From the NCBI GenBank assembly GCA_023473595.1, contig JAMCYV010000025.1, positions 1 to 51,667 of the forward strand: 51,667 bases of DNA, in the 5' to 3' direction. Below are positions 31,251 through 51,603 of the stretch, in pieces. A program made the translations under genes and the position numbers. The stretch's first letter is position 1. Each line of letters opens with the position of its first letter. The stretch is from Patescibacteria group bacterium. Its GTDB lineage: Bacteria; Patescibacteriota; CPR2; UBA1875; JAMCYV01. The notes below the pieces were generated by a model. That model did not search any database. It had not been told where the DNA came from and worked only from the letters and a program-made list of their open reading frames with translations.

Positions 31251-31294
31251 ATTCTAGTTAGTTATTAGAATTTAGAAATTAGAATTTAATAAAA
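31251..31294. repeat. TTAGAA/ATTAGA low-complexity word tract
   Basis: attctagttagttattagaatttagaaattagaatttaat. Confidence 0.6.
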
Positions 31295-32497
31295 ATGCTT
31301 GATTATACTTACACTGCAAAAAACCACGAAGGCGATATAGTAAAAGGAGATGTCGAAGCCGAAAATGATTTGGCGGCGGCAAGGCTTCTGACTGCTAAAA
31401 ACTTAACTCCGATTGATATCTTGCCGAAAAAGGCTAAAAAAAGCTTTGATTTTCTAAATCGAGTTACGACGAAAGACAAAGCTCTTTTTGCAAGGCAACT
31501 AGCGACAATGATTAATGCCGGTCTTCCGATTTCCCAGGCTCTTACAACTTTAAGCGAACAGACCGCAAACCAAAAATTAAAGGGCATTATTGAGACAGTT
31601 GGCCGTGACATTGAAGGCGGGGCGACCCTCTCAGCTTCCTTCTCCCAATTTCCCAAAGTCTTTAAAGAAACCGAGCTTAGTCTTATAGCTTCAGGAGAGG
31701 CTTCGGGAAGCTTAGATAAAGTACTCTTGAAATTAGCTGGTCAGATCGAAAAAGATTATAGCATTAATAAGAGAATTAGAAGTGCCTTCACCTATCCGGC
31801 TTTTATCGTCGTTGTTATTGCGGGGGTTCTTGTTATTATGACTATTTATGTAATGCCGAAAATGGAGGAGTTATATGCCGATTTCAAGTCCCAGCTTCCT
31901 TTTCTTACAAGAATAGTCTTGGGGTTTAGTCATATCATCTCAAGGTACGGCATATTAGTGCTGCTAGCTCTGATAGGCTTTGCAAGCATTTTAAGGATAT
32001 ATATTAGGAAGCCTCAAGGAAGGAAAATGTGGGATACCTTGAAATTAAGGACGCCTATTTTCGGCAATTTTTTCCAAAAGGTTTATATTACAAGATTTGC
32101 CAGCACTCTTTCGAGTCTTGTAAGCTCCGGAGTCCCTCTCTTGGACAGCTTGAGGATTGTTTCGGATGCGATTGGCAATGTTGTTATAGCGAACGTCATT
32201 AAAGACGCCGCCGAAAAGGTCAAAGGAGGTATTCCGCTTTCTACTCCCATTAAAGAGAGCGGCGAATTTCCTTTATTAGTTAGCCAGATGATAAGCGTTG
32301 GAGAAAAAACAGGTGAATTGGACGGAATGCTCGAAAACCTAGCGAATTTTTATTCTGAAGAAGTAGACAATATGGTTAGAAATTTTTCAGCTCTTCTGGA
32401 ACCGGTCATTATTGTCATAATGGGTATCGTTATCGGCATTCTTTTAGTAGCTATTATGATGCCTATTTATGGCTTATCGACAGTTTTGTTTAAATAA
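31295..32497 (+). CDS. pilC: Type II secretion system F family / type IV pilus platform protein PilC
   Basis: Two T2SSF repeats (ARQLATMINAGLP and RFASTLSSLVSSGVPLL) and three TM helices. Confidence 0.9.
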   Translation: MLDYTYTAKNHEGDIVKGDVEAENDLAAARLLTAKNLTPIDILPKKAKKSFDFLNRVTTKDKALFARQLATMINAGLPISQALTTLSEQTANQKLKGIIETVGRDIEGGATLSASFSQFPKVFKETELSLIASGEASGSLDKVLLKLAGQIEKDYSINKRIRSAFTYPAFIVVVIAGVLVIMTIYVMPKMEELYADFKSQLPFLTRIVLGFSHIISRYGILVLLALIGFASILRIYIRKPQGRKMWDTLKLRTPIFGNFFQKVYITRFASTLSSLVSSGVPLLDSLRIVSDAIGNVVIANVIKDAAEKVKGGIPLSTPIKESGEFPLLVSQMISVGEKTGELDGMLENLANFYSEEVDNMVRNFSALLEPVIIVIMGIVIGILLVAIMMPIYGLSTVLFK

Positions 32498-32503
32498 ACG
32501 CTA

Positions 32504-32532
32504 TTGACAAGTATTAGCATACTTCTTAAACT
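32504..32532 (+). promoter_or_regulatory. Candidate sigma70-type promoter for the pilin gene (TTGACA-17 nt-TAAACT)
   Basis: ttgaca at 32504-32509 and taaact at 32527-32532, about 50 nt upstream of ATG 32581. Confidence 0.4.
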
Positions 32533-32580
32533 TAAAGTAAGAGAATTATTAAAAGGATTTATTCCTATGGAGAGAAACAA

Positions 32581-33027
32581 ATGAAAAAGTTATCTAAGAA
32601 AGGGCTTGACTTGAGTAAATCGAAAGGTTTCACCCTCATCGAACTTATGGTAGTAATGGCAATTATCGCTGTTCTTGCTGTTCTTATTATCGGAGCTATT
32701 CAAGCTGCCAGAAGAACCCAGACAGAGACAGCCAACAGGTCAAATGCCAAGACTTTGCAAACCGGTCTTGAGGCTTTTTATGCTAGAAACAAGGCATATT
32801 GTCTTGCTACTGCTAATAATACTTGTACTACGGGAACTTTCTCAACAAAAGCGGCTCAATTATTCAGTGATGGGTTCTTAAGTTCAACCGCTTTATCCAG
32901 TTCTTCATCTGCAGGCGGCGGTGGCGACGTTACCGCTTTACCTGCTCCGCCTGCTACTCCAACATACACTTTAACTATCGATGATTATAAAGGTGATGCT
33001 ACTTCTGAAACGATTATTGTTCCTTAA
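32581..33027 (+). CDS. Type IV (major) pilin with prepilin N-terminal cleavage/methylation domain
   Basis: KSKG|FTLIELMVVMAIIAVLAVL. It has its own promoter candidate and a strong terminator. Confidence 0.85.
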   Translation: MKKLSKKGLDLSKSKGFTLIELMVVMAIIAVLAVLIIGAIQAARRTQTETANRSNAKTLQTGLEAFYARNKAYCLATANNTCTTGTFSTKAAQLFSDGFLSSTALSSSSSAGGGGDVTALPAPPATPTYTLTIDDYKGDATSETIIVP

Positions 33028-33039
33028 ATTCAGTCTTTA

Positions 33040-33066
33040 AAAGCCGCCCTAAGGGCGGCTTTTTTG
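33040..33066 (+). terminator. Rho-independent terminator after the pilin gene
   Basis: aaaagccgccc-taa-gggcggctttttt. Confidence 0.8.
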
Positions 33067-33080
33067 TTATAATAATTTAT

Positions 33081-33980
33081 ATGCTGGAACAAATTTTACT
33101 TTTTCTTCTTTTTATCTTTGGTCTTATTGTCGGCAGTTTTTTGAATGTTGTTATTTATTGGCTAGAAAGCAAAGAGAATAGTTTAACTAGACTGGTCATT
33201 CTGGGGACCAACGGGACGCCAGAATCAAAAAAAACAGGTAAAGATTCTGGTCAAGCCAGAATGACGCGAGAGAACTTAGGTGGCCGATCTTTCTGTCCTC
33301 ATTGCCAGCATCAACTTAATTTCTTCGATTTAATTCCGGTAGCAAGCTGGTTTTTTTTAAAAGGGAAGTGCAGATATTGTCGAAAAAAAATTTCTTATCA
33401 GTATCCATTAGTTGAAATTGCTACAGGATTCATTTTTTTGTTAACTTTTACTTACAAAAATTCTATCTTTAATCAACCTAGCTACTTGCTACTTGCTACT
33501 GTGCTACTGCTAATTGTTAACTGTTTACTGCTTACTATCTTCGTTTTCGACCTTAAGCACCAAATAATCCCTGACTCAATCATCTATCCTGCGATTATTC
33601 TCGCTGTTTTTTATCTAATATTCTTAAACGCTAATCCTTTTTCTTTAGGGCCAGTTCTTTTTTCATTAGGCTCTGCTTTTCTTGCTGGCGGTTTTTTCTA
33701 TGCAATTGCTGCTATTTCAGATGGCAAATGGATGGGTGGGGGAGATATAAAACTTGCCTTTCTTTTGGGGCTTCTTCTCGGCTGGCCGAATATTTTGGTA
33801 GGTCTTTTTCTAGGCTTTTTCTCCGGAGCAATCGTAGGTCTTTTACTTATTGCTTTAAAAAAGGAGAAGTTAAATAGTGCTATCCCTTTTGGTCCGTTTC
33901 TTATAGTCTCGGCCTGGGCTACTTTATTTCTAGGGGAAAAGATAATACAATGGTACTTAAGGATTATGGGGTTTAATTGA
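33081..33980 (+). CDS. pilD: Prepilin peptidase (A24 family) PilD carrying an in-frame repeat-derived insertion
   Basis: GSFLNVVIY, CPHC...CRYC, DLKHQIIPD, GGGDIKL. Confidence 0.88.
   Translation: MLEQILLFLLFIFGLIVGSFLNVVIYWLESKENSLTRLVILGTNGTPESKKTGKDSGQARMTRENLGGRSFCPHCQHQLNFFDLIPVASWFFLKGKCRYCRKKISYQYPLVEIATGFIFLLTFTYKNSIFNQPSYLLLATVLLLIVNCLLLTIFVFDLKHQIIPDSIIYPAIILAVFYLIFLNANPFSLGPVLFSLGSAFLAGGFFYAIAAISDGKWMGGGDIKLAFLLGLLLGWPNILVGLFLGFFSGAIVGLLLIALKKEKLNSAIPFGPFLIVSAWATLFLGEKIIQWYLRIMGFN
33195..33265. repeat. Palindromic GTCATTCTGG...CCAGAATGAC element inside the pilD ORF
   Basis: gtcattctgg(33195-33204)...ccagaatc...gattctggtcaagccagaatgac(33243-33265). The last 23 nt are identical to 21415-21437. 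Confidence 0.8.
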
Positions 33981-34024
33981 TCTAATTACTTCTAATTATT
34001 CTAATTAATCCTAATCAAATCCTA
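33981..34024. repeat. CTAATTA word tract (left flank of the four-helix-bundle gene)
   Basis: tctaattacttctaattattctaattaatcctaatcaaatccta. Confidence 0.65.
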
Positions 34025-34402
34025 ATGACTGCCAAACCCAAAAATAAAACCAAATACGACTTGGAAGAGAGGACTGCAAAGTTTGGCGAAGCTATTATCT
34101 TACTCGCTAAGAAGATAATTCAAAATCCAATAACATTACCGTTGGTTTCTCAGCTAGTAAGAGCGGCAACAAGCATTGGGGCTAATTATGCAGAGGCAGA
34201 TGACGCGGAATCCGGTAAGGATTTCAAACATAAAATAGGGATATGTAAGAAAGAGTCAAGAGAAGTCAAACATTGGTTAAGAATGATTGCCGCTGCTTGT
34301 CCAGAACTAAAAGATGAGTCCAGAGCTTTATGGAACGAAGCCAAAGAGTTAAATCTAATCTTCAATTCAATTATAATAAAAATTAAGAGTAAAAAAGATT
34401 GA
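34025..34402 (+). CDS. Four-helix-bundle protein (23S rRNA intervening-sequence protein family)
   Basis: LVSQLVRAATSIGANYAEADDAESGKDFKHKIGICKKESREVKHWLRMI. Confidence 0.85.
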   Translation: MTAKPKNKTKYDLEERTAKFGEAIILLAKKIIQNPITLPLVSQLVRAATSIGANYAEADDAESGKDFKHKIGICKKESREVKHWLRMIAAACPELKDESRALWNEAKELNLIFNSIIIKIKSKKD

Positions 34403-34469
34403 TTGTTAAAGCATTTATTAATTAGAACTTAGTTAGAATAATTAGGTTAATTAGAAATTAGAGTAATTT
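34403..34469. repeat. TAATTAG word tract (right flank; partly the reverse complement of the left flank)
   Basis: The reverse complement of 34421-34445 is ctaattattctaactaagttctaat. Compare 33992-34015, ctaattattctaattaatcctaat. Confidence 0.6.
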
Positions 34470-35162
34470 ATGAGAGATCAAGGATATAAAGAAAATCACT
34501 ATTCCAAATTTAATATTCTCAACTCAAAATTCTTAAACAATACTGGGTTTACTGTCGTTGAGATGCTGGTTGTTATGACGATCATTGCTATGCTCTTTAC
34601 GCTTAGCGTTGTCTCAATGATCCTGGCTGAAAGGCAGACAAAAGTCAAAAGCACAGCCAAAGCTTTGCAATCAGCAATAAGGGAAATGGCAAATAAAGCA
34701 ATTACCGTTACCCCTGATCTTAGAAATAATACGACGCCAACAAAAGCTTGGGTTATTAAAGTACCCGGAGGGACCGGAACTAATACTTACTACCAGGAAA
34801 GTTTTACCCAAAACGATATTAGCACTTTAATCGAACCCAATTCTTCCCCAACAGATCCTAAGCCGTTAAGAACAGAGAGCAATGTTATTATTCAATCCTT
34901 AGCTCCGACAGTAGCTTCGAGTAACAGCCTTTATCTTGTTTTTGGAACGCCCTTTGCCAAGTTTCGAGCGGTAAATGGTAGCAGCATTTCAGCTTGGTCT
35001 ACTGATTTAACCACTAAGGAAGCCTATCCTGCCGACACAATTTCTATAACTAGTCTGTCGCCTAATAACAAGATAATTTTAAGAGTGAGCGAAGCAAGCA
35101 ACCCGAATAATTATATGGATGTCGAAGTCAATGTCCTTTCTGGAGAAGCTTCGGTTAAATAA
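34470..35162 (+). CDS. Prepilin-type N-terminal domain protein (minor pilin/pseudopilin)
   Basis: NNTG|FTVVEMLVVMTIIAMLF. Confidence 0.75.
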   Translation: MRDQGYKENHYSKFNILNSKFLNNTGFTVVEMLVVMTIIAMLFTLSVVSMILAERQTKVKSTAKALQSAIREMANKAITVTPDLRNNTTPTKAWVIKVPGGTGTNTYYQESFTQNDISTLIEPNSSPTDPKPLRTESNVIIQSLAPTVASSNSLYLVFGTPFAKFRAVNGSSISAWSTDLTTKEAYPADTISITSLSPNNKIILRVSEASNPNNYMDVEVNVLSGEASVK

Positions 35163-35163
35163 A

Positions 35164-35565
35164 ATGAATAAAAAGAAAATTATAAATAATAAAGGTCAAA
35201 GCTTGGTAGAAGTAGTGGTTGCTTTGACTATTCTAGCGATAGTCTTTATCGGGATCGTGACCTTAGCGGCAAATACTATTAAGCTTATGCTATCAAGCCG
35301 CCAGAAGATGCAGGCTGTCGCTATCGCCCAACAACAGTTAGAATTAGAGAAAAGTAATACCGGTAACAGCTGTACTGCTAGAACAGTTCCCTCTAACCCG
35401 GTAATTCCTTCTCAAACAATTGACGGTACCGCTTATACTATTACGAAGTCATTAGCATCAAGTGCAAATTATCCTAATGCCGTTTTAGTAACGATTACCG
35501 TTAGTTGGCCAGTCCAAAGTCAAACAATGTCACTGACAGTAAGAGAATTAGTAAATACCTTATGA
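35164..35565 (+). CDS. Prepilin-type minor pilin
   Basis: NNKG|QSLVEVVVALTILAIVF. The ATG lies 1 nt after the previous stop. Confidence 0.7.
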   Translation: MNKKKIINNKGQSLVEVVVALTILAIVFIGIVTLAANTIKLMLSSRQKMQAVAIAQQQLELEKSNTGNSCTARTVPSNPVIPSQTIDGTAYTITKSLASSANYPNAVLVTITVSWPVQSQTMSLTVRELVNTL

Positions 35566-36122
35566 GAAAAATTAGAAATAAAAAAGGAATGACTATTATC
35601 GAACTAGTTGTCGCTATGACAATCTTTCTAGTGGTTGTAACTTTGGCTGTCGGTGGGTTTGTCTCTCTTCTAAATCTTCAGACTCAATCGGAGACAATGA
35701 CGGGCGTCCAGCAAAATGCCAGGATTGCGATCGAACAAATTACCAGGCAAGCAAGAGAAGCTTTAAAAGTAACGATTGGTCAAAATAATATTACTGTTAA
35801 CGGGACTACTTTTACTTGCACCGCAACCTATAACTGTTTCAGTCTGACAATTCAGGAGTCGCTTACTCTAAGAACCTTTACTTTTTATGTCGATCCTGCC
35901 GATAGCAAGTTAAAAGTGAATGATTCTAGCGTTGGATATCCCTTGACTATAACAAGTGAGGATGTTAGAGTTACACAGCTAAATTTTACTCAGCCTCCGG
36001 TTAATAAAATCCCGCCTATTGTAGACATATCTTTGGGCCTTGCCCCGAGGGTATCAACTTCAGCTTTTACTCAAGATCAGACCACCATAAATACCACAGT
36101 AATTATGACAGGAATCAAATAA
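35562..36122 (+). CDS. Prepilin-type minor pilin
   Basis: NKKG|MTIIELVVAMTIFLVV. ATGA overlap with the previous stop. Confidence 0.7.
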   Translation: MRKIRNKKGMTIIELVVAMTIFLVVVTLAVGGFVSLLNLQTQSETMTGVQQNARIAIEQITRQAREALKVTIGQNNITVNGTTFTCTATYNCFSLTIQESLTLRTFTFYVDPADSKLKVNDSSVGYPLTITSEDVRVTQLNFTQPPVNKIPPIVDISLGLAPRVSTSAFTQDQTTINTTVIMTGIK

Positions 36123-38255: not shown

Positions 38256-39059
38256 ATGGGGATTTTACAGGCAATATTTTTAGGCGTAATCCAAGGGGCG
38301 ACCGAAATTTTGCCGATAAGCTCTTCCGGGCATTTGGTAATCGCTCCCTGGCTTTTTAATTTCAAGGATCCTGGGCTTTCTTTTGATATCGCCCTTCACC
38401 TGGGAACGTTACTTGCAATTCTTGTTTTCTTTTACAAAGATATTCAAAAAGTCCTCATGGGCGGGCTTAACATGCTTTTAGAAAGAAGAGTTGGAGAGAG
38501 CTATGAAAAGCTTTTTCTTTATATCCTAATTGCCACTATCCCCGGGGTTTTAGCCGGGGCTTTCCTGGAAAGCAAAGCAGAGACTCTTTTTAGAAGTCCG
38601 CTTCTTGTCGCTTTTTCGCTTTTTGCCTTTGCATTTGTCATCTTTTATGCCGATCGGTTTGCCAAAAACCCAAAGCCTTTGGAAAAGATGGATTTAAAAG
38701 ACAGTATTTTTATCGGTCTTTCGCAGGCTCTCGCTATCATCCCGGGGGTTTCCCGCTCCGGAGTGACTATTTCCGCCGGGCTTTTAAGAAAGTTAAATAG
38801 AGCAGACGCCGCCAGATTTTCTTTCCTCCTGGCGGTACCGATCATTCTGGGAGCGGCTCTTTATAATCTGCTGAAAATCGATGTTTCCACTCTTTTTTCG
38901 ACTTATTTTATTGCTGGGTTTTTAGCGTCGGCTGTCTCGGGATTTTTAGCGATTAAGTTTCTTGATAGTTTCCTAAAAACAAAGAACTTTAATTTATTTG
39001 TTTACTACCGAGTCTTTCTGGCAGCCGGCATAGTTATTATTTATTTCTACTTGAGATGA
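38256..39059 (+). CDS. uppP: Undecaprenyl-diphosphate phosphatase
   Basis: EILPISSSGHL, PGVSRSG, eight TM helices. Confidence 0.9.
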   Translation: MGILQAIFLGVIQGATEILPISSSGHLVIAPWLFNFKDPGLSFDIALHLGTLLAILVFFYKDIQKVLMGGLNMLLERRVGESYEKLFLYILIATIPGVLAGAFLESKAETLFRSPLLVAFSLFAFAFVIFYADRFAKNPKPLEKMDLKDSIFIGLSQALAIIPGVSRSGVTISAGLLRKLNRADAARFSFLLAVPIILGAALYNLLKIDVSTLFSTYFIAGFLASAVSGFLAIKFLDSFLKTKNFNLFVYYRVFLAAGIVIIYFYLR

Positions 39060-39664
39060 TTGAATTTTTGAGTAGCCTTATTATCCAAGCTATTAGTCAA
39101 TTCCGTTATTTTGCGGTCTTTGGCCTTATGTTTTTGGAAAGCGCCCTTATTCCTGTTCCCTCGGAAGTTGTAATGCCCTTTTCAGGATTTGTCTCTTTAA
39201 GCGGGACCTTAAATTTCTGGCTGGTGGTTTTCTTCGGGACCTTAGGGCAGATAACCGGCTCAGTCTTTATCTTCTATGTCGGAAAGTACGAAGGTCGAAG
39301 CCTCCTCGAAAAATACGGCAAATATATTCTGATCAAGAAAAAGGATATTGCCCACGCCGACCACCTCTTCCAAAAACATGGGGATGCTATTGTTTTTTTC
39401 GGCCGGCTGATTCCGGTAGTTAGGACATTCATTTCCCTGCCGGCCGGGGTTTCAAAAATGAAAGTTTCTAAATTTATCCTTTACTCTTCGGCTGGGATTT
39501 TGCCATGGACTCTTCTTTTTGCTTGGCTGGGAGTTAAAATGGGGGAGAGCTGGGTCAGACTCAAAGGATATTTCCATATTTTTGATGCTTTAATAATAGG
39601 CTTAATTGTGCTTTACTTTCTTTTAAAAGTTATAAGAAAGGCAAATGTTAGACAGAGTTCTTGA
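39056..39664 (+). CDS. DedA family membrane protein
   Basis: LESALIPVPSEVVMPF and GRLIPVVRTFISLPAG. ATGA overlap with uppP. Confidence 0.85.
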   Translation: MIEFLSSLIIQAISQFRYFAVFGLMFLESALIPVPSEVVMPFSGFVSLSGTLNFWLVVFFGTLGQITGSVFIFYVGKYEGRSLLEKYGKYILIKKKDIAHADHLFQKHGDAIVFFGRLIPVVRTFISLPAGVSKMKVSKFILYSSAGILPWTLLFAWLGVKMGESWVRLKGYFHIFDALIIGLIVLYFLLKVIRKANVRQSS

Positions 39665-40256
39665 TTTTTTAGGAGTATACGCTCAAAACTACGGGATTAT
39701 TATAGGTTTTAGCTTTGCAATGCTAGAGGATCTTATATTTTTAGGGGCAATTTTTCCTGGTGAGACAACTCTCCTCCTTCTGGGATTTTTTGCCGCCCAA
39801 GGAAAATTAAGTATTTTTTACCTTATTCCGGCGGTTATTTTGGGTTATCTTCTTGGCGATAATCTGGGCTACTATCTTGGTTATCATCACGGGAGAAAGT
39901 TTTTAAAAAAATTCGGCAAGTATTTTTTCTTTGAAGAAGATAAGCTTCATTTAGCTGAAGGGTTTTACAAAAGGCACGGATCGAAAACAGTTCTTTTAGG
40001 GAAATTGATTGGTTTTATCCGATCATTTGTGCCCTTTACTGCTGGAATGTCTAAGATGACTTATTCTAAGTTTTTCATTTTAGACTTTTTGGGAACTGTT
40101 TTAAGCGCCTTTTTCATTACTCTTTTAGGCTATTTCTTTGGCAGCAATTGGCGATTTGTCAAAACCACACTTGGAGATATCGGGATTATAGCTTTTATTT
40201 TTATTGCTATTATTATTTATAACTACTTAAAAAAAGTTAAAAGTGAAAGCGCATAG
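39645..40256 (+). CDS. DedA family membrane protein (second paralog)
   Basis: IFPGETTLLLLGF and GKLIGFIRSFVPFTAG. It overlaps the previous gene by 20 nt. Confidence 0.85.
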   Translation: MLDRVLDFLGVYAQNYGIIIGFSFAMLEDLIFLGAIFPGETTLLLLGFFAAQGKLSIFYLIPAVILGYLLGDNLGYYLGYHHGRKFLKKFGKYFFFEEDKLHLAEGFYKRHGSKTVLLGKLIGFIRSFVPFTAGMSKMTYSKFFILDFLGTVLSAFFITLLGYFFGSNWRFVKTTLGDIGIIAFIFIAIIIYNYLKKVKSESA

Positions 40257-43405: not shown

Positions 43406-44350
43406 ATGGCTAAAAGGTTTAAAATACTAGTAGATAGAGAAGCAATTTCAGGAGCTCTTAAGAGGAATAAGTTTGCAACTGCTGTTTTTTCTCTGGCGGG
43501 AATCAGTCTTATTTTTTATCTGACTTTTGCTGTTGGGATTTATAAGTTTGGCTGGCAAGATAATTTTACTCGGAGAGTTGCTAGCATTCTTCCTTATCCG
43601 GTTGAAAAAGTCGGCGGCAAACTTGTTTTTTACGGGGATTATCTTTCAAAAGTCGATTTTTTCACGAGCTATCAGACAAATTTTAATAATGTCGATTTTA
43701 ATTCTGAAGCTGGTAAAAAGAAGATAGCGGAGATAAAAGCTACAGTTCTAAATCAGATGGCAGAAGACATCATTATTGCCGAGGAAGCCAAAAAAAGGAA
43801 CATTTCCGTTTCTCAAAAAGAGCTTGATGATTCCTTTAATGATCTTATAAAAAGCAATGGCGGCGAAGAAAGGGTTAAGGAAAATTTAAATAAATACTAT
43901 AGCGGGATGTCTCTTGCAGAATTTAAAGATCAATATGGAGATAAAATTTTAAGACAAAAACTGGCGGAAGTGGTCGTTTCCGATCCTGCTCTTCTTATGG
44001 ATGCCAAAAAGATAGCCGATGATGTTTTAGTTCAGGTAAAAAGCGGCGGAGATTTTGCGGTTCTTGCTAAAAAATATAGCCAGGATACTACGGCAGCTAA
44101 TGGTGGCGACCTCGGGTTTTTCTCTAAAGGAAAAATGGTCCCCGAATTTGAAAAAGCGGCTTTTGCTCTTTCGGTTGGCCAGACCAGCGATCTCGTTAAA
44201 ACCATTTATGGCTACCATATTATTAAATTAACCGAAGTAAAGGGCGATCAGATAAGGGCAAGCCATATTCTAATAAAAACTAAAGATTTCAATGACTGGC
44301 TTCAAGATCAGCTTAAAGCCTACAGCGTAAGAAGATATATAAAGTTTTAA
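43406..44350 (+). CDS. Parvulin-type peptidylprolyl isomerase (PrsA/SurA-like), membrane-anchored
   Basis: FAVLAKKYSQDTTAANGGDLGFFSKGKMVPEFEKAAF...YGYHIIK. Confidence 0.85.
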   Translation: MAKRFKILVDREAISGALKRNKFATAVFSLAGISLIFYLTFAVGIYKFGWQDNFTRRVASILPYPVEKVGGKLVFYGDYLSKVDFFTSYQTNFNNVDFNSEAGKKKIAEIKATVLNQMAEDIIIAEEAKKRNISVSQKELDDSFNDLIKSNGGEERVKENLNKYYSGMSLAEFKDQYGDKILRQKLAEVVVSDPALLMDAKKIADDVLVQVKSGGDFAVLAKKYSQDTTAANGGDLGFFSKGKMVPEFEKAAFALSVGQTSDLVKTIYGYHIIKLTEVKGDQIRASHILIKTKDFNDWLQDQLKAYSVRRYIKF

Positions 44351-44395: not shown

Positions 44396-44536
44396 TTACT
44401 AGAAATTGGTAGGAAGACTTACAAATCTCTCTTCAAAAATCTTTCATATTTAAGACCTTCTCATAATTATATGTCTCTTTAGAGCGGTTAATATCGGAAT
44501 TGAAAATATGAAAACAATGGTAAGGAGGTGAGGCAA

Positions 44537-44698
44537 ATGGCAGGCCAAAAAGGAAAAATGACTGTTCAGGAAGCTGGCCGAAAAGGCGGCAGGGCCACAA
44601 GTTCTACTCGAGGCCGAGAGTTCTATCAAGAAATTGGAAGAAAAGGCGGCCAAAGAGTCAGGTCTCTCATAAATAAAGGGAAAAAAGCAGGTAGGTAA
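44537..44698 (+). CDS. KGG-repeat general stress protein (GsiB/YciG-like), 53 aa, not in the ORF track
   Basis: AAGGAGGTG lies upstream. Sequence: MAGQKGKMTVQEAGRKGGRATSSTRGREFYQEIGRKGGQRVRSLINKGKKAGR. Confidence 0.75.
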   Translation: MAGQKGKMTVQEAGRKGGRATSSTRGREFYQEIGRKGGQRVRSLINKGKKAGR

Positions 44699-44738
44699 TT
44701 ATTTGGCCAAATAATTAATGCATTAGGAAGGAGGAAAT

Positions 44739-44915
44739 ATGGTGGAAGAAAAAGGAAAAATGACTGTTGAAGAAGCCGGTAAAAAAGGCGGACAAAGAAC
44801 GAGTGAAACCCATGGAAGAGACTTTTATTCTGAAATCGGGAAAATGGGTGGCTCAAAAGGCGGCCAGAGAGTCAAAAGACTGATAGAAGAAGGTAAAGAA
44901 AGGGAACAGCGATAA
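44739..44915 (+). CDS. KGG-repeat general stress protein (GsiB/YciG-like), 58 aa, not in the ORF track
   Basis: GGAAGGAGG lies upstream. Sequence: MVEEKGKMTVEEAGKKGGQRTSETHGRDFYSEIGKMGGSKGGQRVKRLIEEGKEREQR. Confidence 0.75.
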   Translation: MVEEKGKMTVEEAGKKGGQRTSETHGRDFYSEIGKMGGSKGGQRVKRLIEEGKEREQR

Positions 44916-44946
44916 TACTAATTAATCAAATAGGGAGGTGAATAAT

Positions 44947-45168
44947 ATGGCAGAAGAAAAAGGAAAAATGACTGTTGAAGAAGCTGGCCGAAAAGGCGGC
45001 CAGACCACAAGCTCTACCAGAGGTCGAGAATTCTACCAAGAAATCGGGAAAAAGGGCGGAAGGACGACTAGCTCGACTCATGGCCGAGAATTCTACCAAG
45101 AAATCGGGCATAAAGGCGGCCAAAGGGTCCGATCATTAATTGAGGAAGGCAAAGAACAAGAGAGATAA
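44947..45168 (+). CDS. KGG-repeat general stress protein (GsiB/YciG-like), three repeats
   Basis: GGGAGGTG lies upstream of ATG 44947. The unit GRKGGQTTSSTRGREFYQEIG is repeated. Confidence 0.8.
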   Translation: MAEEKGKMTVEEAGRKGGQTTSSTRGREFYQEIGKKGGRTTSSTHGREFYQEIGHKGGQRVRSLIEEGKEQER

Positions 45169-45202
45169 TTAGTAGAGATTACTTTTCTAGGAAGGAGGAA
45201 AT

Positions 45203-45454
45203 ATGGCGGAAGAAAAAGGAAAAATGACTGTTGAAGAAGCCGGTAAAAAAGGCGGACAAATGACAAGCTCAACCCACGGAAAAGACTTTTATTCTGAAAT
45301 TGGAAGAAAAGGCGGACAGAGGGGAGGTCGCAAAGGTGGCGAAACAACAAGTAAAAGATATGGTCACGATTTTTATTCTGAAATCGGGCATAAAGGCGGC
45401 CAAAGAGTCCGGGAGCTAATCAGCGAAGGCAAAGAAACTGAGATAGAAGAATAG
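45203..45454 (+). CDS. KGG-repeat general stress protein (GsiB/YciG-like), four repeats
   Basis: GGAAGGAGG lies upstream. Repeats of the form KKGGQMTSSTHGKDFYSEIG... Confidence 0.8.
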   Translation: MAEEKGKMTVEEAGKKGGQMTSSTHGKDFYSEIGRKGGQRGGRKGGETTSKRYGHDFYSEIGHKGGQRVRELISEGKETEIEE

Positions 45455-45461
45455 GATTCAA

Positions 45462-45496
45462 AAAGGAAATGGAGTCTAAAAGGCTCCCTTTCCTTT
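45462..45496. terminator. Bidirectional hairpin terminator between convergent genes
   Basis: aaaggaaatggag...ctccctttccttt forms a roughly 13-bp stem with one mismatch. It is flanked by A and T runs. Confidence 0.7.
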
Positions 45497-45503
45497 TTGA
45501 ATT

Positions 45504-47420
45504 TTAGAAATTTTTCAAAAATTGAGCAGTGTCTTCTTGCTCTTTCAGGGCCTCTTTAGCCGCCTTTTCAATAGGAATAAAAAATTGTGTCAGGCCGGCG
45601 TCGTCTTCAATAAGCGGTATTTTCTTCAAGGAATCTTTGGATATTTTTATATGTTTAAGGACAGTTTCGCACATTTTAGAAACCGTCTTCTCCCAGAAAA
45701 TCTTTTGGAGAGAAAAAAGATCTTTATCTAAGCAAATTATCCTTTTATTATTTGATTTCATCCATTCTTTGATTAAAGGGACAGAAGCGCTGTTTAAATG
45801 TCCCTTCTTAAGGTCCTTTTCCCAGTCATGCATATCATCATTTATTTGGCGGGCGATAATGTAATTTTTTAACCATTTCGAGGTATTTTTTACCTCCTTT
45901 GAATTTTTGCCATAACCTAAAGAAAGAAGGATTGCAAGGGGCCCCAGTCCATGGCCAAGCGATTTTTCAGCCAAGATAGAATAGTCTTTATAATTTGGGA
46001 GCCTCTTTGGCAAAGTTAGGACTCCTTCTTTCAAATGAGTTCGGCAATTTTCTACCTCCCAAAGATTAGCAAAGTCTATTTTATCCATAATGCCTTTAAA
46101 AACTGGCATAAAATCTTTGTTTTCTACTGGTAAGCTGATAGAAATTACTGTTAGTTCCCTTAAGCAAATGTTTGCCAATGATAATTCCTTGGGTTTTCCT
46201 TCATCATCGAAAAAATCGTCATAAATAGTATAGGCAATCCAGCCATATAGATTAATAAGACCTAAATCGATCAGTAACTTTTTCTGTATTTTTTGTTTGT
46301 TGCCCAATGTCTGGCTGAAAAAGTAAGGCAGGAGGGCAATTTGATCGCCGAGTTCATGGGATTTTATTTCGTTTAAGGTCTTAAGGGCAATTTTTTTTAA
46401 AGCAGGCTCAAGACTTTGGAACTTTTTAGCAGCTTCTGAAAAGATTCTGTTTTTTAAATTTTCTGACTCTTCCGATTCTTTCTTTTCTACATTTGTTAAT
46501 TTTTGGTATTTTAAAAGAGCTTCTAAAAAGAAAGAAGCAGTGAGGGCCGGCGATCCACCAAAAATTTTCCTGCCGTTATGATTTGACTCAATAATCAAAG
46601 GATAAGGCTTAAAAGAACTGTTTTTTAAGAGGTATGATATGCTTTTTTCAAGTTTTTTTGCCGGATAATTTAAGTTTAGAAGCGAGCTTATGGCAAGGGA
46701 TGTGTCCAAAGGATTATTCCAATATCCATTCTTTTTCTTTTTGGCAAGATAATCTATTAATTTTTCTGAATTGCCTTTAAAAGATCTGGAAATAAAATAG
46801 ATTACCGGATACTCGGAAGCATAATAAGGAGAGGAAAATTTACCTTTCTTTACTGCTTCTTCCATTAATTTAGTTAGATTAGGGAGAATGATTTCCTCAA
46901 GGGATAAAAAATAGGCGATATTGGCATTTACCGCTAGATCAATATCTTTCCAGCTTTTTCCAGCGTTTTTTGGGACTAACCAAGTATAATAAGGGCCTCC
47001 TTCTTTTACTTCTAAATTGGTAAGGAGATTTGCTATCTTTGCAAAAATATTCCCTTTAATAAGAGAGTTTTCAGCAAGAAAAAGACCGGAAAGAGCGCAG
47101 AAAGTATCATCCAAATCATCCGGATAGGGCATAGCCTCATATTCTTTAGAATCCTTAACCCAATAATTGAAAGACCAGTTTTTGCTTCTTTCGTTTAAAA
47201 GGAATCGGACAATTTTATTGTTCATTTCTTTTAATTTTTGCTCATCAAAAGGAGCGAGGGAAGCTAAAATAAGGCTAGCCGAAAAGGTTGTTTGTCTTTT
47301 AAGGGGTTTTTGAAAATCTCTGTTTTTGGAAGCGAAATCTATAAAGCTACCATTACTTTTTTGCTGTGAGGCTAAGAACTTTATCGCTTTTTCTTTTGCT
47401 TGATTTAAGTTTTTGGCCAT
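45504..47420 (-). CDS. Fusion protein: N-terminal prenyltransferase/terpene-cyclase-like alpha/alpha toroid (DxDDT) + C-terminal isoprenoid-synthase-like domain (two DDxxD)
   Basis: The 638-aa ORF has AIKFLASQQKSNGSF-type toroid repeats. YPDDLDDTF is at residues 99-107 (nt 47103-47120), YDDFFDDEG at 400-408 (nt 46203-46220) and QINDDMHD at 525-532 (nt 45825-45839). Confidence 0.6.
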   Translation of the reverse strand: MAKNLNQAKEKAIKFLASQQKSNGSFIDFASKNRDFQKPLKRQTTFSASLILASLAPFDEQKLKEMNNKIVRFLLNERSKNWSFNYWVKDSKEYEAMPYPDDLDDTFCALSGLFLAENSLIKGNIFAKIANLLTNLEVKEGGPYYTWLVPKNAGKSWKDIDLAVNANIAYFLSLEEIILPNLTKLMEEAVKKGKFSSPYYASEYPVIYFISRSFKGNSEKLIDYLAKKKKNGYWNNPLDTSLAISSLLNLNYPAKKLEKSISYLLKNSSFKPYPLIIESNHNGRKIFGGSPALTASFFLEALLKYQKLTNVEKKESEESENLKNRIFSEAAKKFQSLEPALKKIALKTLNEIKSHELGDQIALLPYFFSQTLGNKQKIQKKLLIDLGLINLYGWIAYTIYDDFFDDEGKPKELSLANICLRELTVISISLPVENKDFMPVFKGIMDKIDFANLWEVENCRTHLKEGVLTLPKRLPNYKDYSILAEKSLGHGLGPLAILLSLGYGKNSKEVKNTSKWLKNYIIARQINDDMHDWEKDLKKGHLNSASVPLIKEWMKSNNKRIICLDKDLFSLQKIFWEKTVSKMCETVLKHIKISKDSLKKIPLIEDDAGLTQFFIPIEKAAKEALKEQEDTAQFLKNF

Positions 47421-48822
47421 TTTTCTTTATTAATTCCTTTTTCATTGGAAGCTCAATCTTAAAAACAGTTCCTTCTTCTTTATTGCTTTTTGCGGCGATA
47501 GTTCCAGAAAAGTCTTTTTCAATAATATTTTTAGTCATTGCTAGTCCGATGCCCATTCCTTTGCTTAAGTCTTTAGTAGTAAAGAAGGGATTAAAAATTT
47601 TCTCCAAATTTTTTTCCGGTATCCCTTGGCCAAAATCACAAACTTCCAAATTAATTTTATTTTTGGCTTTATAAAGTTTTATTTGGACGGTTTTTCCAAG
47701 CGAGCTTTTATGATAGGCATCGATGGCATTCGTTAAAAGATTAGTTATCGCCTGATGCAATTTCAAAGGATTGCCGAAGATTTTTATTCTCTCACCTTCG
47801 TTAAAAATCAATTTGACATTGGCTTTTCTCGCTTTATAAGAAAGAATTTGAATAGCTTGTTCGACTTCCTTGTTGATTAAAAAGTAAGTATTTATTTCTG
47901 TCTGCTGAACTTGTTTGCGTACAGCACTTATGAAGCTCTCCATCTTTTTTGTCGCTTGCAGAGCGAGTTTTAAATGAGGCTTAATGCTCTCGATTCTTTT
48001 GGAATCTTCTTGCCTCATTTGTTCGAGATTTAGAGAGACGGCTGACAAGGGATTTACTAGATCGTGAAAAATTCCGGAGGCTAGCCACCCGAATTCGGCA
48101 AAGTGGGCCATCTGGGCCATCTTTTCAAGCTGGGTTTTCTGAAGTTCTTTGGTTCTTTTTATAACCCTAATCTCTAAGAGGTCTCTTTCTTTCTTTAAAG
48201 CGGCTTCCGACTGGTGGGCCCTTTTCAAGGATTTTTCTATTTCCCTGTTGTATAGCCAAGAAATAACCGTGATAATTGACAAGGTAATGACAGCGACGAT
48301 AACATCGCTAAAATCAGCGCTTCTGTTCCGCCAATAAGCGTCAGGATGATAGATAGAGATTGATTGGAGATATGACAAAATCAAACAATAGACAGAAATA
48401 GTAAAAGTAGTAATGACTGCTAACCGAGTGCCCATAAGTATGCCGGACATAACGATAATTAAAGAGTAAGTGATAAAGGCTTGAGGAAGGTCGGGACCCC
48501 AGACAAAAACGGTATAAGAGATAGGAGCTGTAAACATAAAGATCAGGATGTAACAGGCCCAGTCAATTTTTCCCTTCTTAGAAAGCCGGTAGAGAAAAAC
48601 TAATATCCCGATAATTATAAGAGCGATCCGAGCGGGGATGCCGGGTACATGATGGAATCTGACAACATCAACAATAATCCTTAAAAGAGCAGCCGAAGCG
48701 AGGATAATTGTGCTTAATAAAATAACGTTTAGGATAAATTCACGACGCCTAATATCCTCCTTCTTTGAGCGAGGCTCTACTAATTTCCTAATCAGTTTTC
48801 TTGTTGGTAAAGGTATTTTCAA
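47353..48822 (-). CDS. Sensor histidine kinase with six-TM sensor region
   Basis: About six TM helices lie in the first 190 aa, with no large loop. H-box FHDLVNPLS, N-box LLTNAIDA, G1 DFGQGI, G2 GMGIGLAM. TTG start. The 3' end overlaps the next gene by 68 nt. Confidence 0.88.
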   Translation of the reverse strand: MKIPLPTRKLIRKLVEPRSKKEDIRRREFILNVILLSTIILASAALLRIIVDVVRFHHVPGIPARIALIIIGILVFLYRLSKKGKIDWACYILIFMFTAPISYTVFVWGPDLPQAFITYSLIIVMSGILMGTRLAVITTFTISVYCLILSYLQSISIYHPDAYWRNRSADFSDVIVAVITLSIITVISWLYNREIEKSLKRAHQSEAALKKERDLLEIRVIKRTKELQKTQLEKMAQMAHFAEFGWLASGIFHDLVNPLSAVSLNLEQMRQEDSKRIESIKPHLKLALQATKKMESFISAVRKQVQQTEINTYFLINKEVEQAIQILSYKARKANVKLIFNEGERIKIFGNPLKLHQAITNLLTNAIDAYHKSSLGKTVQIKLYKAKNKINLEVCDFGQGIPEKNLEKIFNPFFTTKDLSKGMGIGLAMTKNIIEKDFSGTIAAKSNKEEGTVFKIELPMKKELIKKNGQKLKSSKRKSDKVLSLTAKK

Positions 48823-49032: not shown

Positions 49033-49713
49033 CTATTTGGCCAAGTCCAACTTATAGCCTCGTCCGGGGATAGTATATAAAAGCTTTACTTGATTTTTTA
49101 AATGGATTTTCCGCCTCAAATTGGAAACATGGACCTCGATTGCGTTTGAGAAAAGATCGGCATTCATATCCCAGACATGCTCCATAATCATTCCTCTCGT
49201 TACAACGTTTCCTTTATTTCGCATAAGGTATTCCAAAAGCTCATATTCCTTTAAGGTAAGGTAAATTTTTTTATCGCCTCTTTTAAAGATTTGCTTTTTA
49301 GTGTCCAAAACTAAATTATCAATTTTTAAAATATCTCCCTTAGCTTCCTTCGGCCTTCTAAGAAGCGCTCTTATCCTTGCCAGAAGTTCGGCAAAAGAGA
49401 ATGGCTTGGTTAAGTAATCATCGGCTCCGGTATTTAAAAAATCAACTTTGGTAGCGGATTCCGAAACGACAGAGAGCATTAGTATCGGCATATTCTGGCC
49501 GTCTTCTCGGATCTCTTTTAAGACCAAAAGCCCGTCTTTCTCCGGTAAATTCTTATCCAAGATAATGAGGTCATATTCGTTGGTGCAGGCATAATAAACG
49601 CCCTTTTCGCCATCGGTGGCGGTGTCTACTTCGAAGCATTCCGCTTCTAGCATATTTTTCAAAGATTTATTTAAGACTTTATCGTCATCAATGATTAAGA
49701 TGCGCATTTTCAC
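49033..49713 (-). CDS. OmpR-family response regulator (receiver + winged helix)
   Basis: ILIIDDD, DLIILDKNLP, LTKPF, LTLKEYELLEYLMRN...GRGYKL. Confidence 0.92.
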   Translation of the reverse strand: MKMRILIIDDDKVLNKSLKNMLEAECFEVDTATDGEKGVYYACTNEYDLIILDKNLPEKDGLLVLKEIREDGQNMPILMLSVVSESATKVDFLNTGADDYLTKPFSFAELLARIRALLRRPKEAKGDILKIDNLVLDTKKQIFKRGDKKIYLTLKEYELLEYLMRNKGNVVTRGMIMEHVWDMNADLFSNAIEVHVSNLRRKIHLKNQVKLLYTIPGRGYKLDLAK

Positions 49714-49790
49714 CTCCTTGCTTCTATATGATAATTGAATTTGTTCTTATGGTAAATGTTTTGGCTTAGGAAAATAGTAAATATGCAAGA

Positions 49791-50516
49791 TCAGATCGGT
49801 AATCTTTTCTTCCTCCAAAAAAGAAGGTAGGTGATAGGTCCGATTAAAATAATTGAAATAACGTAAGTTCCGGAGCCAGCTGTTTTAAAAGTAGTACCGA
49901 CAACTGCTTGAGTTAACAAATAGGCAATGATAATAACATTAAAAATCTGGTTTTCTTTTACAAGCGGAAATTCAGACTTTGTCTGGCGATCCCAATAAAA
50001 AAGACCCGTAAAAATTAAGATTAAAAGAAGGACAAAGCCGCCGGCCGGATTATTCAGGGGCCCGAGCTGGCTTTGCCAGAAAAGAAGAAGAGTCAGAAAC
50101 AAAGCTAAAAAGACAAAAAACGGCCATTTGCTGCCTAATTTTTCTTCTTTTCTAGGAAGGAATTTACCGCCGAAGTAGAAAGGGAGAACGGTCGCCATTA
50201 GCCCCCAAGCAATAATCTGGACGGCGACAATAAACCAGTTAATTCCTAAAAAAAGCGGAGGAGCGGCGTAAAAACTGCGGTGAAGGAAACCCTCGACTAC
50301 AAAGCCGAAAATGGCGCCGGCTAAGAAAAGCTGGCGGTCAGTTAGTTTAAAGGTTCTTATAGCGTTTTCGAGAGTTAAAATATATAAAAAATAGAAAAGA
50401 ATTAAAACCCCCTGGGTGAGAAGCGTCGGTCCATGGGCAAAATACTCGCCGTTTAGAAAGATCGCAAGAGCCGTGATCAATAGTATTCTTAGAAATGAAC
50501 GCAATTTGCCTTGCAT
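49791..50516 (-). CDS. Polytopic membrane protein, unknown function
   Basis: 241-aa ORF with about seven hydrophobic helices. Confidence 0.55.
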   Translation of the reverse strand: MQGKLRSFLRILLITALAIFLNGEYFAHGPTLLTQGVLILFYFLYILTLENAIRTFKLTDRQLFLAGAIFGFVVEGFLHRSFYAAPPLFLGINWFIVAVQIIAWGLMATVLPFYFGGKFLPRKEEKLGSKWPFFVFLALFLTLLLFWQSQLGPLNNPAGGFVLLLILIFTGLFYWDRQTKSEFPLVKENQIFNVIIIAYLLTQAVVGTTFKTAGSGTYVISIILIGPITYLLFWRKKRLPI

Positions 50517-50531
50517 AATTCAATTATAGCA

Positions 50532-50858
50532 TTAGTGAGATACAAAGAATTCGCCGATAAGGAGTATAACAAACAAAGTCCCTATGGCAATGGACGGGTA
50601 AATTAAAAGAGCTCTTTCCTTTTGTTTAATAAAAGCGACCATTCCTGTAACAAATGCGGAAATACCGCAAGCCATACCAGTTAGCATTGAAAGGGAAAGG
50701 AACGGCCTTACAGTAATATCTTCTAAAATAGCCCCGGCCGGTACAGACTTATATAAAGTATTTGCCAAAAGTCCGCCGGTAAAAAATAATACCGGCATTG
50801 CGATGATGAGTAATATCGACCACTTGCCCAGTTTGCTCTTAGGGAAAATAGTTGCCAT
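50532..50858 (-). CDS. Small membrane protein (3 TM)
   Basis: 108-aa hydrophobic ORF, co-oriented with 49791..50516. Confidence 0.5.
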   Translation of the reverse strand: MATIFPKSKLGKWSILLIIAMPVLFFTGGLLANTLYKSVPAGAILEDITVRPFLSLSMLTGMACGISAFVTGMVAFIKQKERALLIYPSIAIGTLFVILLIGEFFVSH

Positions 50859-50956: not shown

Positions 50957-51202
50957 CTAGCTCATGAGATAGCTGGCATAGGCGCGCTCTATTAGCGCGC
51001 GTTCGCTTGGGCTCATTTGAATCCTATAGTATGAGCCTCGAAGCAGCTCTCCGACTACCTCGCGAGCTCGGTTTTCAGTCCCTTTCGCGCTTGGCGAATC
51101 GAAGATCAAATGATCCCTTTCGGCTTGGTCCAGCAAGCTGTCTATGAGGTGACCAGGGAGACCAGCATTCCCCGCCGCCTCTCTGATTTCAGAGGTGCAC
51201 AT
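50957..51202 (-). CDS. Hypothetical protein, G+C-rich, paralog of 51214..51456
   Basis: AAGGAG lies 5 nt upstream. It shares A(A/G)xAG(V/L)PxHLI...L..AE.DH..F.S.S......RA.E.V..L and a C-terminal Y(L/F)MS with its neighbour. Confidence 0.55.
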   Translation of the reverse strand: MCTSEIREAAGNAGLPGHLIDSLLDQAERDHLIFDSPSAKGTENRAREVVGELLRGSYYRIQMSPSERALIERAYASYLMS

Positions 51203-51213
51203 TATCGCTCCTT

Positions 51214-51456
51214 TCAGCTCATAAAGTAGTGCTGAAGCTCACAGACGATTGTCATGTGAGCATCAGGGCCCATCGAGATGCCGGCCGTGATAAGTCTCTG
51301 GACTGCTTCTTGGGCACGACTGTTTGCAGGTGCTTCCGACTCGGAACCGAAGAAGGAGTGATCAGACTCAGCGTTGCTAAGCATCTTTTCGATCAAGTGC
51401 TCGGGGACTCCGGCGGCTTCTGCTGCCGCTCTGACTTTCTTCAAACTGCCTTCCAT
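51214..51456 (-). CDS. Hypothetical protein, G+C-rich, paralog of 50957..51202
   Basis: The start was moved to the internal ATG (MEGSLKK...), which lies 6 nt after GAGGAGGA. The ORF track extends it to 51522. Confidence 0.55.
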   Translation of the reverse strand: MEGSLKKVRAAAEAAGVPEHLIEKMLSNAESDHSFFGSESEAPANSRAQEAVQRLITAGISMGPDAHMTIVCELQHYFMS

Positions 51457-51603
51457 TTCTAATCCTCCTCTGTAGGAATAACTGATTTCGCTTATTATAT
51501 AATAATTTTTATGCTTTGTCAATCTTTCTTAAATCGGTCTTATCCAGGGTCCAGACATCTTGGACACTTTTAGCTGAATCATTAAGAATGGAAGGAGTTA
51601 AAA

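Follow-up and report, generated by a model that had tools for sequence, protein, structure and literature searches.

Conserved fusion of two terpene-synthase-like domains linked to a two-component system in Patescibacteria

Can one protein of a Patescibacteria group bacterium hold both a class II terpene cyclase site and a metal-dependent site of the class I or prenyl-synthase kind? The question is raised by a gene on contig JAMCYV010000025.1 (assembly GCA_023473595.1; GTDB lineage Bacteria, Patescibacteriota, CPR2, UBA1875, JAMCYV01), whose 51,667 nucleotides are the whole stretch analysed here, called the window. The original prediction, made from the letters of this DNA, described a 638-residue fusion with a DxDDT-like motif in its N-terminal half and two Asp-rich motifs in its C-terminal half. 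Having followed it up by homology searches, structure modelling and comparison of loci, we think it rather probable that the fusion is a soluble two-site terpenoid synthase. It would act on a substrate resembling farnesyl diphosphate (FPP) or geranylgeranyl diphosphate (GGPP), give a cyclic product and stand under two-component control.

The gene and its two domains

45504..47420, minus strand: fusion gene, full open reading frame (ORF) of 638 residues with an ATG start, joining a beta domain (class II cyclase-like) to an alpha domain (apparently prenyl-synthase-derived)

The predicted ORF is present on the minus strand. The peptides AIKFLASQQKSNGSF and IDYLAKKKKNGYWNNPLDTSLAISSLL, quoted as toroid repeats, were found in its translation at the residues given for them, the motif-bearing peptides PYPDDLDDTFCAL (residues 98-110), AYTIYDDFFDDEG (396-408) and ARQINDDMHDWEKDLKKGHLN (523-543) were correctly placed, and the 127-residue spacing of the two C-terminal motifs is that from D401 to D528. 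Coordinates of the three Asp-rich motifs listed below were checked by re-translation of the DNA. The public gene call of the same protein (P0001) has 573 residues and begins at M66. All homologs can be aligned with residues 1-65, in which Q20 and G24 are invariant, and the 638-residue reading is therefore the correct one. The first 68 nt of the fusion gene (47353-47420) also belong to the 3' end of the kinase ORF upstream, which is why the public call starts at M66 and drops 65 conserved residues. The protein is predicted to be soluble, with no transmembrane helix. Its AF2 (AlphaFold2) model, made from the family alignment, had a mean pLDDT of 89.4 and a pTM of 0.79.

By sequence, the fusion is a member of a large conserved family. 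A word-indexed homolog search gave 830 matches; the best 120, P0001 apart, were 40-48% identical to the query and nearly all covered at least 98% of it. An exhaustive profile search returned 1427 clusters (50% identity) at E<=1e-30, and the best 150 were all full-length fusions. When one genome per GTDB species was scanned with a pattern, 228 species carried the family. Those with sensible labels belong to CPR2, Microgenomates, Parcubacteria, Saccharibacteria, Doudnabacteria and similar groups, and homologs with a named organism were almost all of Patescibacteria type. Family members are at present labelled 'hypothetical protein', a few being auto-named 'terpene cyclase/mutase family protein' by NCBI. 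Some homologs carry a precomputed match to the Pfam entry PF28380.

Since short Asp-rich strings can occur by chance, conservation is a real test of the motifs. We aligned 319 non-identical family members, 33-48% identical to the window protein. The motifs of the original prediction passed: D102, D104, D401, D405, Q525, D528, H531, D532 and D536 are conserved in 100% of the members, T106 (98%), D529 (97%) and D105 (95%) are near-invariant, and D402 is kept in 83%, with N otherwise.

The N-terminal half had been read as a class II cyclase toroid, and three features were located in it:

46488..47420, minus strand: beta domain, an alpha/alpha toroid, residues 1 to ~311 (profile search against the PDB, Foldseek, weak Pfam matches)
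47103..47129, minus strand: PYPDDLDDT, class II DxDD(T) motif, aligned with FPDDLDTT of Aquimarina spongiae drimenol synthase (AsDMS); translation checked
46980..47012, minus strand: E137-x3-GGPY-x-T-W147 loop, invariant and family-specific; translation checked

A search of the PDB with the single sequence gave no match. With a profile of 38 members, the solved structures matched were all of one kind, namely the TCbeta domain at the C-terminus of AsDMS; residues 12-311 of the fusion aligned with residues 235-523 of 9mhs/9m7d (E 4e-12). This alignment puts D102-L-D104-D105-T106 in register with D321-L-D323-T-T of AsDMS, where D323, the class II motif's 'middle' Asp, acts as catalytic general acid (PMC12232559). 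By this register, D104 is predicted to be the general acid of the fusion. Foldseek of the AF2 model against the PDB also placed AsDMS (9m7d/9mhs) first, with E 3e-8, followed by the 345-residue monodomain cyclases 8pak/8paj (deposited as squalene-hopene cyclases) and then by the Streptomyces drimenyl diphosphate synthase (SsDMS). Pfam gave only sub-threshold matches on the toroid of the window protein (Prenyltrans, TED) and weak ones on the 38 members (TED_complement 18/38, SQHop_cyclase_C 15/38, plus Prenyltrans and Pec_lyase); an NCBIfam scan of the window protein gave no meaningful match. From the AsDMS profile match, the D104/D323 register and the AF2/Foldseek matches, we conclude that the N-terminal toroid is a beta-only class II cyclase domain. 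This bears out the single toroid of ~300 residues noted originally, which is of the type seen in MstE and AsDMS. MstE and the HAD-TCbeta enzymes belong to this rare beta-only type of class II cyclase (PMC12365925, PMC12324236).

Five residues of the family-specific loop (E137, G142, P143, Y144 and W147) are 100% conserved among the 319 members, and the loop has no counterpart in AsDMS in the profile alignment. Residues 138-150, with pLDDT <50, form the least confident stretch of the AF2 model. The loop might cap the active site or serve as interface for a partner.

The C-terminal half was compared with isoprenyl diphosphate synthases (IPPSs), whose own first and second Asp-rich motifs are abbreviated FARM and SARM:

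45507..46472, minus strand: all-helical alpha domain, residues ~317-638, isoprenoid-synthase fold (Foldseek, hhalign, weak Pfam match)
46197..46223, minus strand: YDDFFDDEG, first Asp-rich motif (D401, D402, D405), aligned with the FARM (IHDDIxD) of IPPSs; translation checked
45801..45848, minus strand: QINDDMHDWEKDLKKG, second Asp-rich motif (Q525, D528, D529, H531, D532, D536), aligned with the IPPS SARM; translation checked

The likeness to prenyl synthases and class I enzymes that had been proposed for this half was recovered in its fold and in its motifs. The nearest structures in Foldseek were trans-polyprenyl diphosphate synthases (4jyx, 1rqi (E. coli IspA), 3aqb, 5jfq and 3lmd), with E 1e-4 to 2e-3 and target-normalised template modelling (TM) scores of 0.6-0.7. 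The types represented were hexaprenyl-PP synthase (3aqb), GGPP synthases (GGPPSs) and solanesyl-, octaprenyl- and decaprenyl-PP synthases, and among the 50 matches listed all those of the C-terminal domain were prenyl synthases and none terpene cyclases. HMMER searches of the PDB, with the single sequence and with the 38-member profile, found no solved relative for this half. A profile of residues 316-638 was then aligned by hhalign with a profile of the 15 canonical IPPSs encoded in operons of the homologs (see below), in local mode with low mact; global mode gave only a meaningless terminal alignment. The two profiles were collinear over 281 columns (P 0.0015, probability 17%). YTIYDDFLD stood opposite LLIHDDIxD of the FARM, IARQLNDDAHD opposite FQIxDDxL(G/D) of the SARM with its FQ element, and DLKKG opposite D(I/L)xEGK, 11 residues being deleted between the SARM and this last element. 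In the same weak alignment the basic residues of IPPSs are unmatched: GGKxxR corresponds to QIxLLPY, KT to LAxRS, and the RRG after the FARM to a 4-residue gap.

The second motif, N527-D528-D529-x-H531-D532-x-x-x-D536, is readable as a SARM or as an all-Asp DDxxDxxxD variant of the class I motif (N,D)Dxx(S,T)xxxE; the latter would explain the invariance of D536, which lies outside the classical SARM. The DDxxD motif of class I helix D is present as D401-D-F-F-D405. Terpene_syn_C_2 matched residues 397-467 with 19.1 bits, below its 23.7-bit cut-off, and PF00348 (polyprenyl_synt) matched neither the window protein nor any of the 38 members. In our reading of the model and motifs, the alpha domain is prenyl-synthase-derived and would keep the binding of Mg2+ and of an allylic-type diphosphate, and not that of isopentenyl diphosphate (IPP). 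With the IPP-binding residues missing, it is unlikely to elongate chains. The AF2 model and Foldseek thus put both halves in fold classes of terpene synthases, not in unrelated folds. The idea that one polypeptide combines both chemistries holds at the level of fold and motif, with two terpene-synthase folds and conserved motifs.

Linkage to a two-component system

On the minus strand of the window, the genes stand in the order regulator, kinase, fusion, an order also found at two distant homologs:

49728..49756, minus strand: sigma-70-like promoter match TTTACC-17-TATCAT (9/12), just upstream of the regulator; consensus match only
49033..49713, minus strand: OmpR-family response regulator (Response_reg + Trans_reg_C), first gene of the putative operon
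47353..48822, minus strand: histidine kinase, ~6 transmembrane helices with short loops, then HisKA and HATPase_c (Pfam, transmembrane prediction), directly upstream of the fusion gene
45471..45487, strand not assigned (detected on plus): GC-rich hairpin 17 nt beyond the fusion stop, between the convergent fusion gene and last KGG-repeat gene; consensus match only

Sigma-70-like matches in the region were not more numerous than the shuffled expectation. The hairpin is, from its sequence, a possible bidirectional terminator.

Loci from 80 different species were fetched, their ORFs called and searched with the window's proteins, and the neighbourhoods of 82 homologs compared. Upstream DNA was long enough for the kinase to be looked for in 75 loci. 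In 72 of these a kinase ortholog (30-47% identity, E 1e-60 to 1e-140) adjoins the fusion gene in the same orientation, its stop often overlapping the start of the fusion gene. Two of the three remaining loci have a kinase ortholog within 0.8 kb. A regulator ortholog is found upstream, in the same orientation, in 52/66 loci; in several others it is located immediately downstream, on the opposite strand. One homolog, P0233 (770 residues, locus L084, 2565-4877), is a beta-alpha fusion with a C-terminal receiver (REC) domain (PF00072, E 3e-21), encoded in a regulator-kinase-(cyclase-REC) operon. Operon linkage with a two-component system is the most distinctive feature of the family, and the kinase linkage and the REC fusion together tie the protein to phosphorelay control. 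Stand-alone receiver genes and a PAS kinase also lie nearby on the contig that encodes P0233.

Unbiased clustering of neighbouring ORFs brought out a sole further recurrent partner, a polyprenyl synthetase of ~345 residues (PF00348, E ~1e-54) whose nearest PDB relatives are GGPPS and FPP synthase (FPPS). In 12/76 loci its gene directly follows the fusion gene in the same orientation, stop and start being mostly adjacent or overlapping; in 3 others it is placed between those of the regulator and the kinase, which brings the operons with a canonical polyprenyl synthase to 15/82 loci. This linkage ties the fusion to prenyl diphosphate metabolism independently of homology. An ABC exporter cluster was found near 14 loci, at distances and orientations too variable for it to be taken as part of the system.

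Other genes around the fusion were considered as partners and set aside. Four tandem paralogous small ORFs (56, 58, 76 and 83 residues; 44528-45454, plus strand) encode KGG-repeat, GsiB/LEA (late embryogenesis abundant)-like stress proteins (Pfam KGG, E 6e-15 for the last). The original prediction had proposed to assay the fusion with and without this neighbouring peptide. As the KGG-repeat genes are convergent with the fusion gene and absent from the neighbourhoods of the 82 homologs, their products are probably unrelated to it. The membrane proteins at 49791-50516 and 50532-50858 are not conserved beside homologs, nor is the peptidyl-prolyl isomerase (PPIase) at 43406-44350, except in the closest CPR2 relative.

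Elsewhere in the window, the sole isoprenoid-related gene among 45 ORFs encodes a UppP/BacA undecaprenyl-diphosphatase (38256-39059, E 4e-78). It is followed by two genes that look DedA-like by eye and encode membrane proteins, the three (38256-40256, plus strand) forming a carrier-lipid recycling group ~6 kb from the fusion operon and on the opposite strand. A TspO/MBR family protein (12228-12716, plus strand, E 2e-38) precedes an SdpI-like membrane protein (12754-13425), which is unusual for a reduced genome; TspO/MBR proteins are tetrapyrrole- and sterol-binding membrane proteins. For a second histidine kinase (HisKA + HATPase_c; 15004-16386, minus strand), the scanned ORFs include no response regulator next to it. 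A cluster of type IV pilus or competence-like genes (30177-36122, plus strand) comprises a T2SSE ATPase, a T2SSF platform protein, an A24 prepilin peptidase and several N-methyl pilins. We further noted a DUF763 protein (21491-22636, plus strand, E 3e-125), a stand-alone RNase H/RVT_3 domain protein (28788-29195, plus strand) and two adjacent small paralogs (81 and 102 residues; 50957-51522, minus strand) with no Pfam match and the common motif AG(V/L)P(E/G)HLI...D(H)..F.S.

Proposed function and its alternatives

As a two-site terpenoid synthase, the fusion could work as follows. A separate polyprenyl synthase, co-operonic in about one fifth of lineages, would make a short prenyl diphosphate, FPP or GGPP-like; a C15-C20 substrate is suggested, GGPPS and FPPS being the nearest relatives of the operon IPPSs. 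In the beta domain, D104 (PDDLDDT) would protonate a terminal C=C bond of the isoprenoid and so start ring closure. In the alpha domain, the Asp-rich motifs with Mg2+ would bind the diphosphate and ionise or remove it by class I chemistry, rather than elongate the chain. The net outcome would be a cyclic terpene or terpenol without diphosphate. The enzyme would be expressed together with, and probably controlled by, its dedicated two-component system, a kinase of the intramembrane type with six transmembrane helices and an OmpR-type regulator.

The alpha reaction could precede the beta reaction, an order found in Bacillus YtpB followed by SqhC and in squalene synthase followed by squalene-hopene cyclase. 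As to precursors, the original prediction had seen in the host a lineage with very limited lipid metabolism. This does not exclude an isoprenoid supply, as genomes of the candidate phyla radiation (CPR) commonly carry mevalonate-pathway genes, IDI and IPPSs (PMC6107057), which makes a supply of isoprenoid precursors plausible.

Several observations weigh against a two-site synthase. The phosphate-binding arginines of the AsDMS beta domain (R368, R370 and R415) map to W157, D159 and P198 of the fusion; as they are not conserved, the beta-domain substrate may carry no diphosphate, and an alpha-first order is possible. The sequence match between the alpha domain and IPPSs is weak, with the hhalign values given above and no HMMER or Pfam polyprenyl_synt match, and the assignment of this domain leans mainly on predicted structure. 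About 80% of the loci have no adjacent IPPS gene, and the 45 ORFs surveyed in the 51.7-kb window include no gene of the methylerythritol phosphate (MEP) or mevalonate (MVA) pathway and none for an IPPS. Several loci (L046, L011, L013, L047, L065, L078 and others) carry odd taxon labels (Gammaproteobacteria, Vitreimonas, Methylomirabilota, Sulfotelmatobacter, Bacillota, Dormiibacterota), which are probably mislabelled metagenome-assembled genomes in the records and not true occurrences outside the CPR. Finally, a linkage to a kinase as strict as that observed is unusual for a plain biosynthetic enzyme and fits a signalling role too.

Such a role would make the fusion an isoprenoid-sensing accessory of the two-component system, a possibility that we regard as doubtful. 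It would bind FPP, GGPP or undecaprenyl diphosphate, perhaps with slow turnover, and inform the six-helix kinase, as a cytoplasmic input module which monitors the supply of isoprenoids or carrier lipid and makes no end-product lipid. Besides the translationally coupled kinase adjacency in 72/75 loci, with its frequent stop/start overlap (68 nt in the window), this would suit the kinase itself, which must sense within the membrane or via a partner because its extracytoplasmic loops are short, and the existence of the receiver-domain fusion P0233. The invariant disordered loop 137-147 could be a protein-protein interface, and in reduced genomes the operon IPPS could be a housekeeping FPP/GGPP synthase feeding undecaprenyl diphosphate synthesis. 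Yet an absolutely conserved DxDD general-acid triad and two full metal motifs speak for a need of catalysis more than of binding, a REC fusion usually marks the fused domain as regulated output and not as input, and we know of no precedent for a terpene-cyclase fold as kinase co-sensor. If the alpha domain were instead an active prenyltransferase, it would elongate to FPP or GGPP and the N-terminal domain would cyclise these to drimenyl or copalyl diphosphate, following the logic of the fungal enzyme PvCPS. We judge this quite unlikely. Prenyltransferases fused to class II cyclases do exist (PvCPS, PMC12393454), trans-IPPSs are the nearest structures of the C-terminal half, and FARM-like and SARM-like motifs are conserved, including the Gln of the FQ element; but the basic residues that bind IPP and diphosphate (GGKxxR, RRG, KT) are unmatched in the profile alignment, no member reaches the Pfam threshold for polyprenyl_synt, and the separate canonical IPPS, co-operonic in 15/82 loci, would be redundant.

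Very unlikely, in our view, is a function outside terpenoid metabolism, with a toroid acting on another substrate, of the glycan, peptide or thioester type (as in TED/A2M, LanC-like proteins or glycoside hydrolases), a structural helical domain and Asp motifs put to other use. It could be argued from the Pfam matches of the members, weak and scattered over several toroid families (TED_complement and SQHop_cyclase_C above all), and from the window protein reaching no curated threshold. Against it, among solved structures only the beta domain of a terpene cyclase was matched significantly by sequence, and there the catalytic motifs coincide; direct reading of the family alignment found neither a CGEQ thioester motif nor a Cys-Cys-His zinc-site motif in the toroid, the second domain is independently of isoprenoid-synthase fold, and polyprenyl synthase genes recur in the operon.

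Returning to the two-site synthase, the kinase-linked fusion of these tiny-genome Patescibacteria suggests that a lineage credited with making few lipids has a terpenoid pathway under regulation. We also offer a bolder proposal, improbable when taken as a whole, of a phylum-wide homeostatic circuit for a membrane terpenoid. The six-helix kinase would sense the state of the membrane or of isoprenoids and control a minimal beta-alpha cyclase through the regulator or, in some lineages, by phosphotransfer to the fused receiver; the product would be a sterol- or hopanoid-like surrogate made from FPP or GGPP. If so, organisms unable to make fatty acids could tune membranes built from scavenged lipids, and the beta-alpha layout would preserve, in living organisms, an early step by which multidomain terpene synthases were assembled. 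For the CPR, with almost no characterised specialised or lipid metabolism, the family is a conserved one of testable function, and a cyclic terpenoid made by these bacteria would change views of their membranes and host interactions. As regards signalling, it is unusual for a terpene-cyclase-like protein to be paired near-obligatorily with a two-component system, and in one case even fused to a receiver; the pairing gives a handle on the stimulus of one of the few conserved CPR kinases.

Comparison with known systems

The catalogued architectures of terpene synthases are alpha, alpha-alpha, alpha-beta, alpha-beta-gamma, beta-gamma, beta and HAD-beta. In the literature on these architectures we found no didomain of a beta domain with an active class II site and a prenyl-synthase-like, motif-complete alpha domain, and in that on terpene cyclases and two-component systems of Patescibacteria, CPR and Saccharibacteria no description of the family. 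The fusion would thus be a compact scaffold new to this catalogue and would help to show how multidomain terpene synthases originated.

Its closest characterised relatives are the HAD-TCbeta drimenol synthases (AsDMS, 9mhs/9m7d; fungal AstC-type). Their beta-only class II domain is homologous, with PDDLDDT of the fusion in register with PDDLDTT, and in both cases a cyclase devoid of gamma domain is joined to a second, diphosphate-handling domain. In the fusion this partner is a C-terminal alpha domain with two Asp-rich motifs, whereas in the HAD-TCbeta enzymes it is an N-terminal HAD phosphatase. No HAD domain was found in Pfam/NCBIfam scans of the fusion or in its AF2 model; lacking it and having the reverse domain order, the fusion falls outside the HAD-TCbeta family. 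It also differs from AsDMS in that the phosphate-binding Arg residues are not conserved and an extra invariant GGPYxTW loop is present, and from the HAD-TCbeta enzymes generally in being found in Patescibacteria, nearly always with two-component-system genes. The monodomain class II cyclases (MstE merosterolic acid synthase; the 345-residue myxobacterial 8pak/8paj) likewise hold the whole class II site in a single beta toroid (Foldseek E 1e-7 to 3e-6, target-normalised TM score 0.60-0.64). Those enzymes stand alone, and the substrate of MstE carries no diphosphate, whereas the beta domain of the fusion is covalently joined to alpha.

With the bifunctional diterpene synthases of alpha-beta-gamma type (abietadiene synthase, fungal CPS/KS, bacterial fused DCSs), the fusion has in common a DxDD motif and an Asp-rich metal site on one chain, and, with the plant enzymes, the order of beta before alpha. 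The plant alpha-beta-gamma enzymes are considerably larger than 638 residues. The fusion, in contrast, has no gamma domain, alpha following directly on a single toroid (1 to ~311), and its class II site therefore cannot lie at a beta-gamma interface. Its alpha domain is closer to prenyl synthases, with DDxHDxxxD as second motif and not the canonical NSE/DTE. It does not belong to the curated class I terpene synthase families either, Terpene_syn_C_2 being sub-threshold and the nearest structures prenyl synthases.

To trans-isoprenyl diphosphate synthases (IspA 1rqi, GGPPS, HexPPS 3aqb) the alpha domain is alike in fold, in its FARM-like DDxxD and SARM-like QxxDDxxD on the same helices with comparable spacing, and in a D-L-x-x-G after the SARM. 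It differs from them by the absence of GGKxxR, post-FARM RRG and KT, by the 11-residue deletion after the SARM and by fusion to a cyclase. The missing IPP-site residues and the unmatched model place it outside PF00348. In Penicillium PvCPS, the class II region is larger and multi-domain. There, as in the fusion, an IPPS-fold domain and a class II cyclase share a polypeptide, and the IPPS domain is a bona fide GGPP synthase (PMC12393454); the fusion differs by an IPPS-like domain without IPP site and by a beta-only cyclase. By analogy with these systems, we infer that the functional parallels of the fusion probably lie with the HAD-TCbeta drimenol synthases and the alpha-beta-gamma diterpene synthases.

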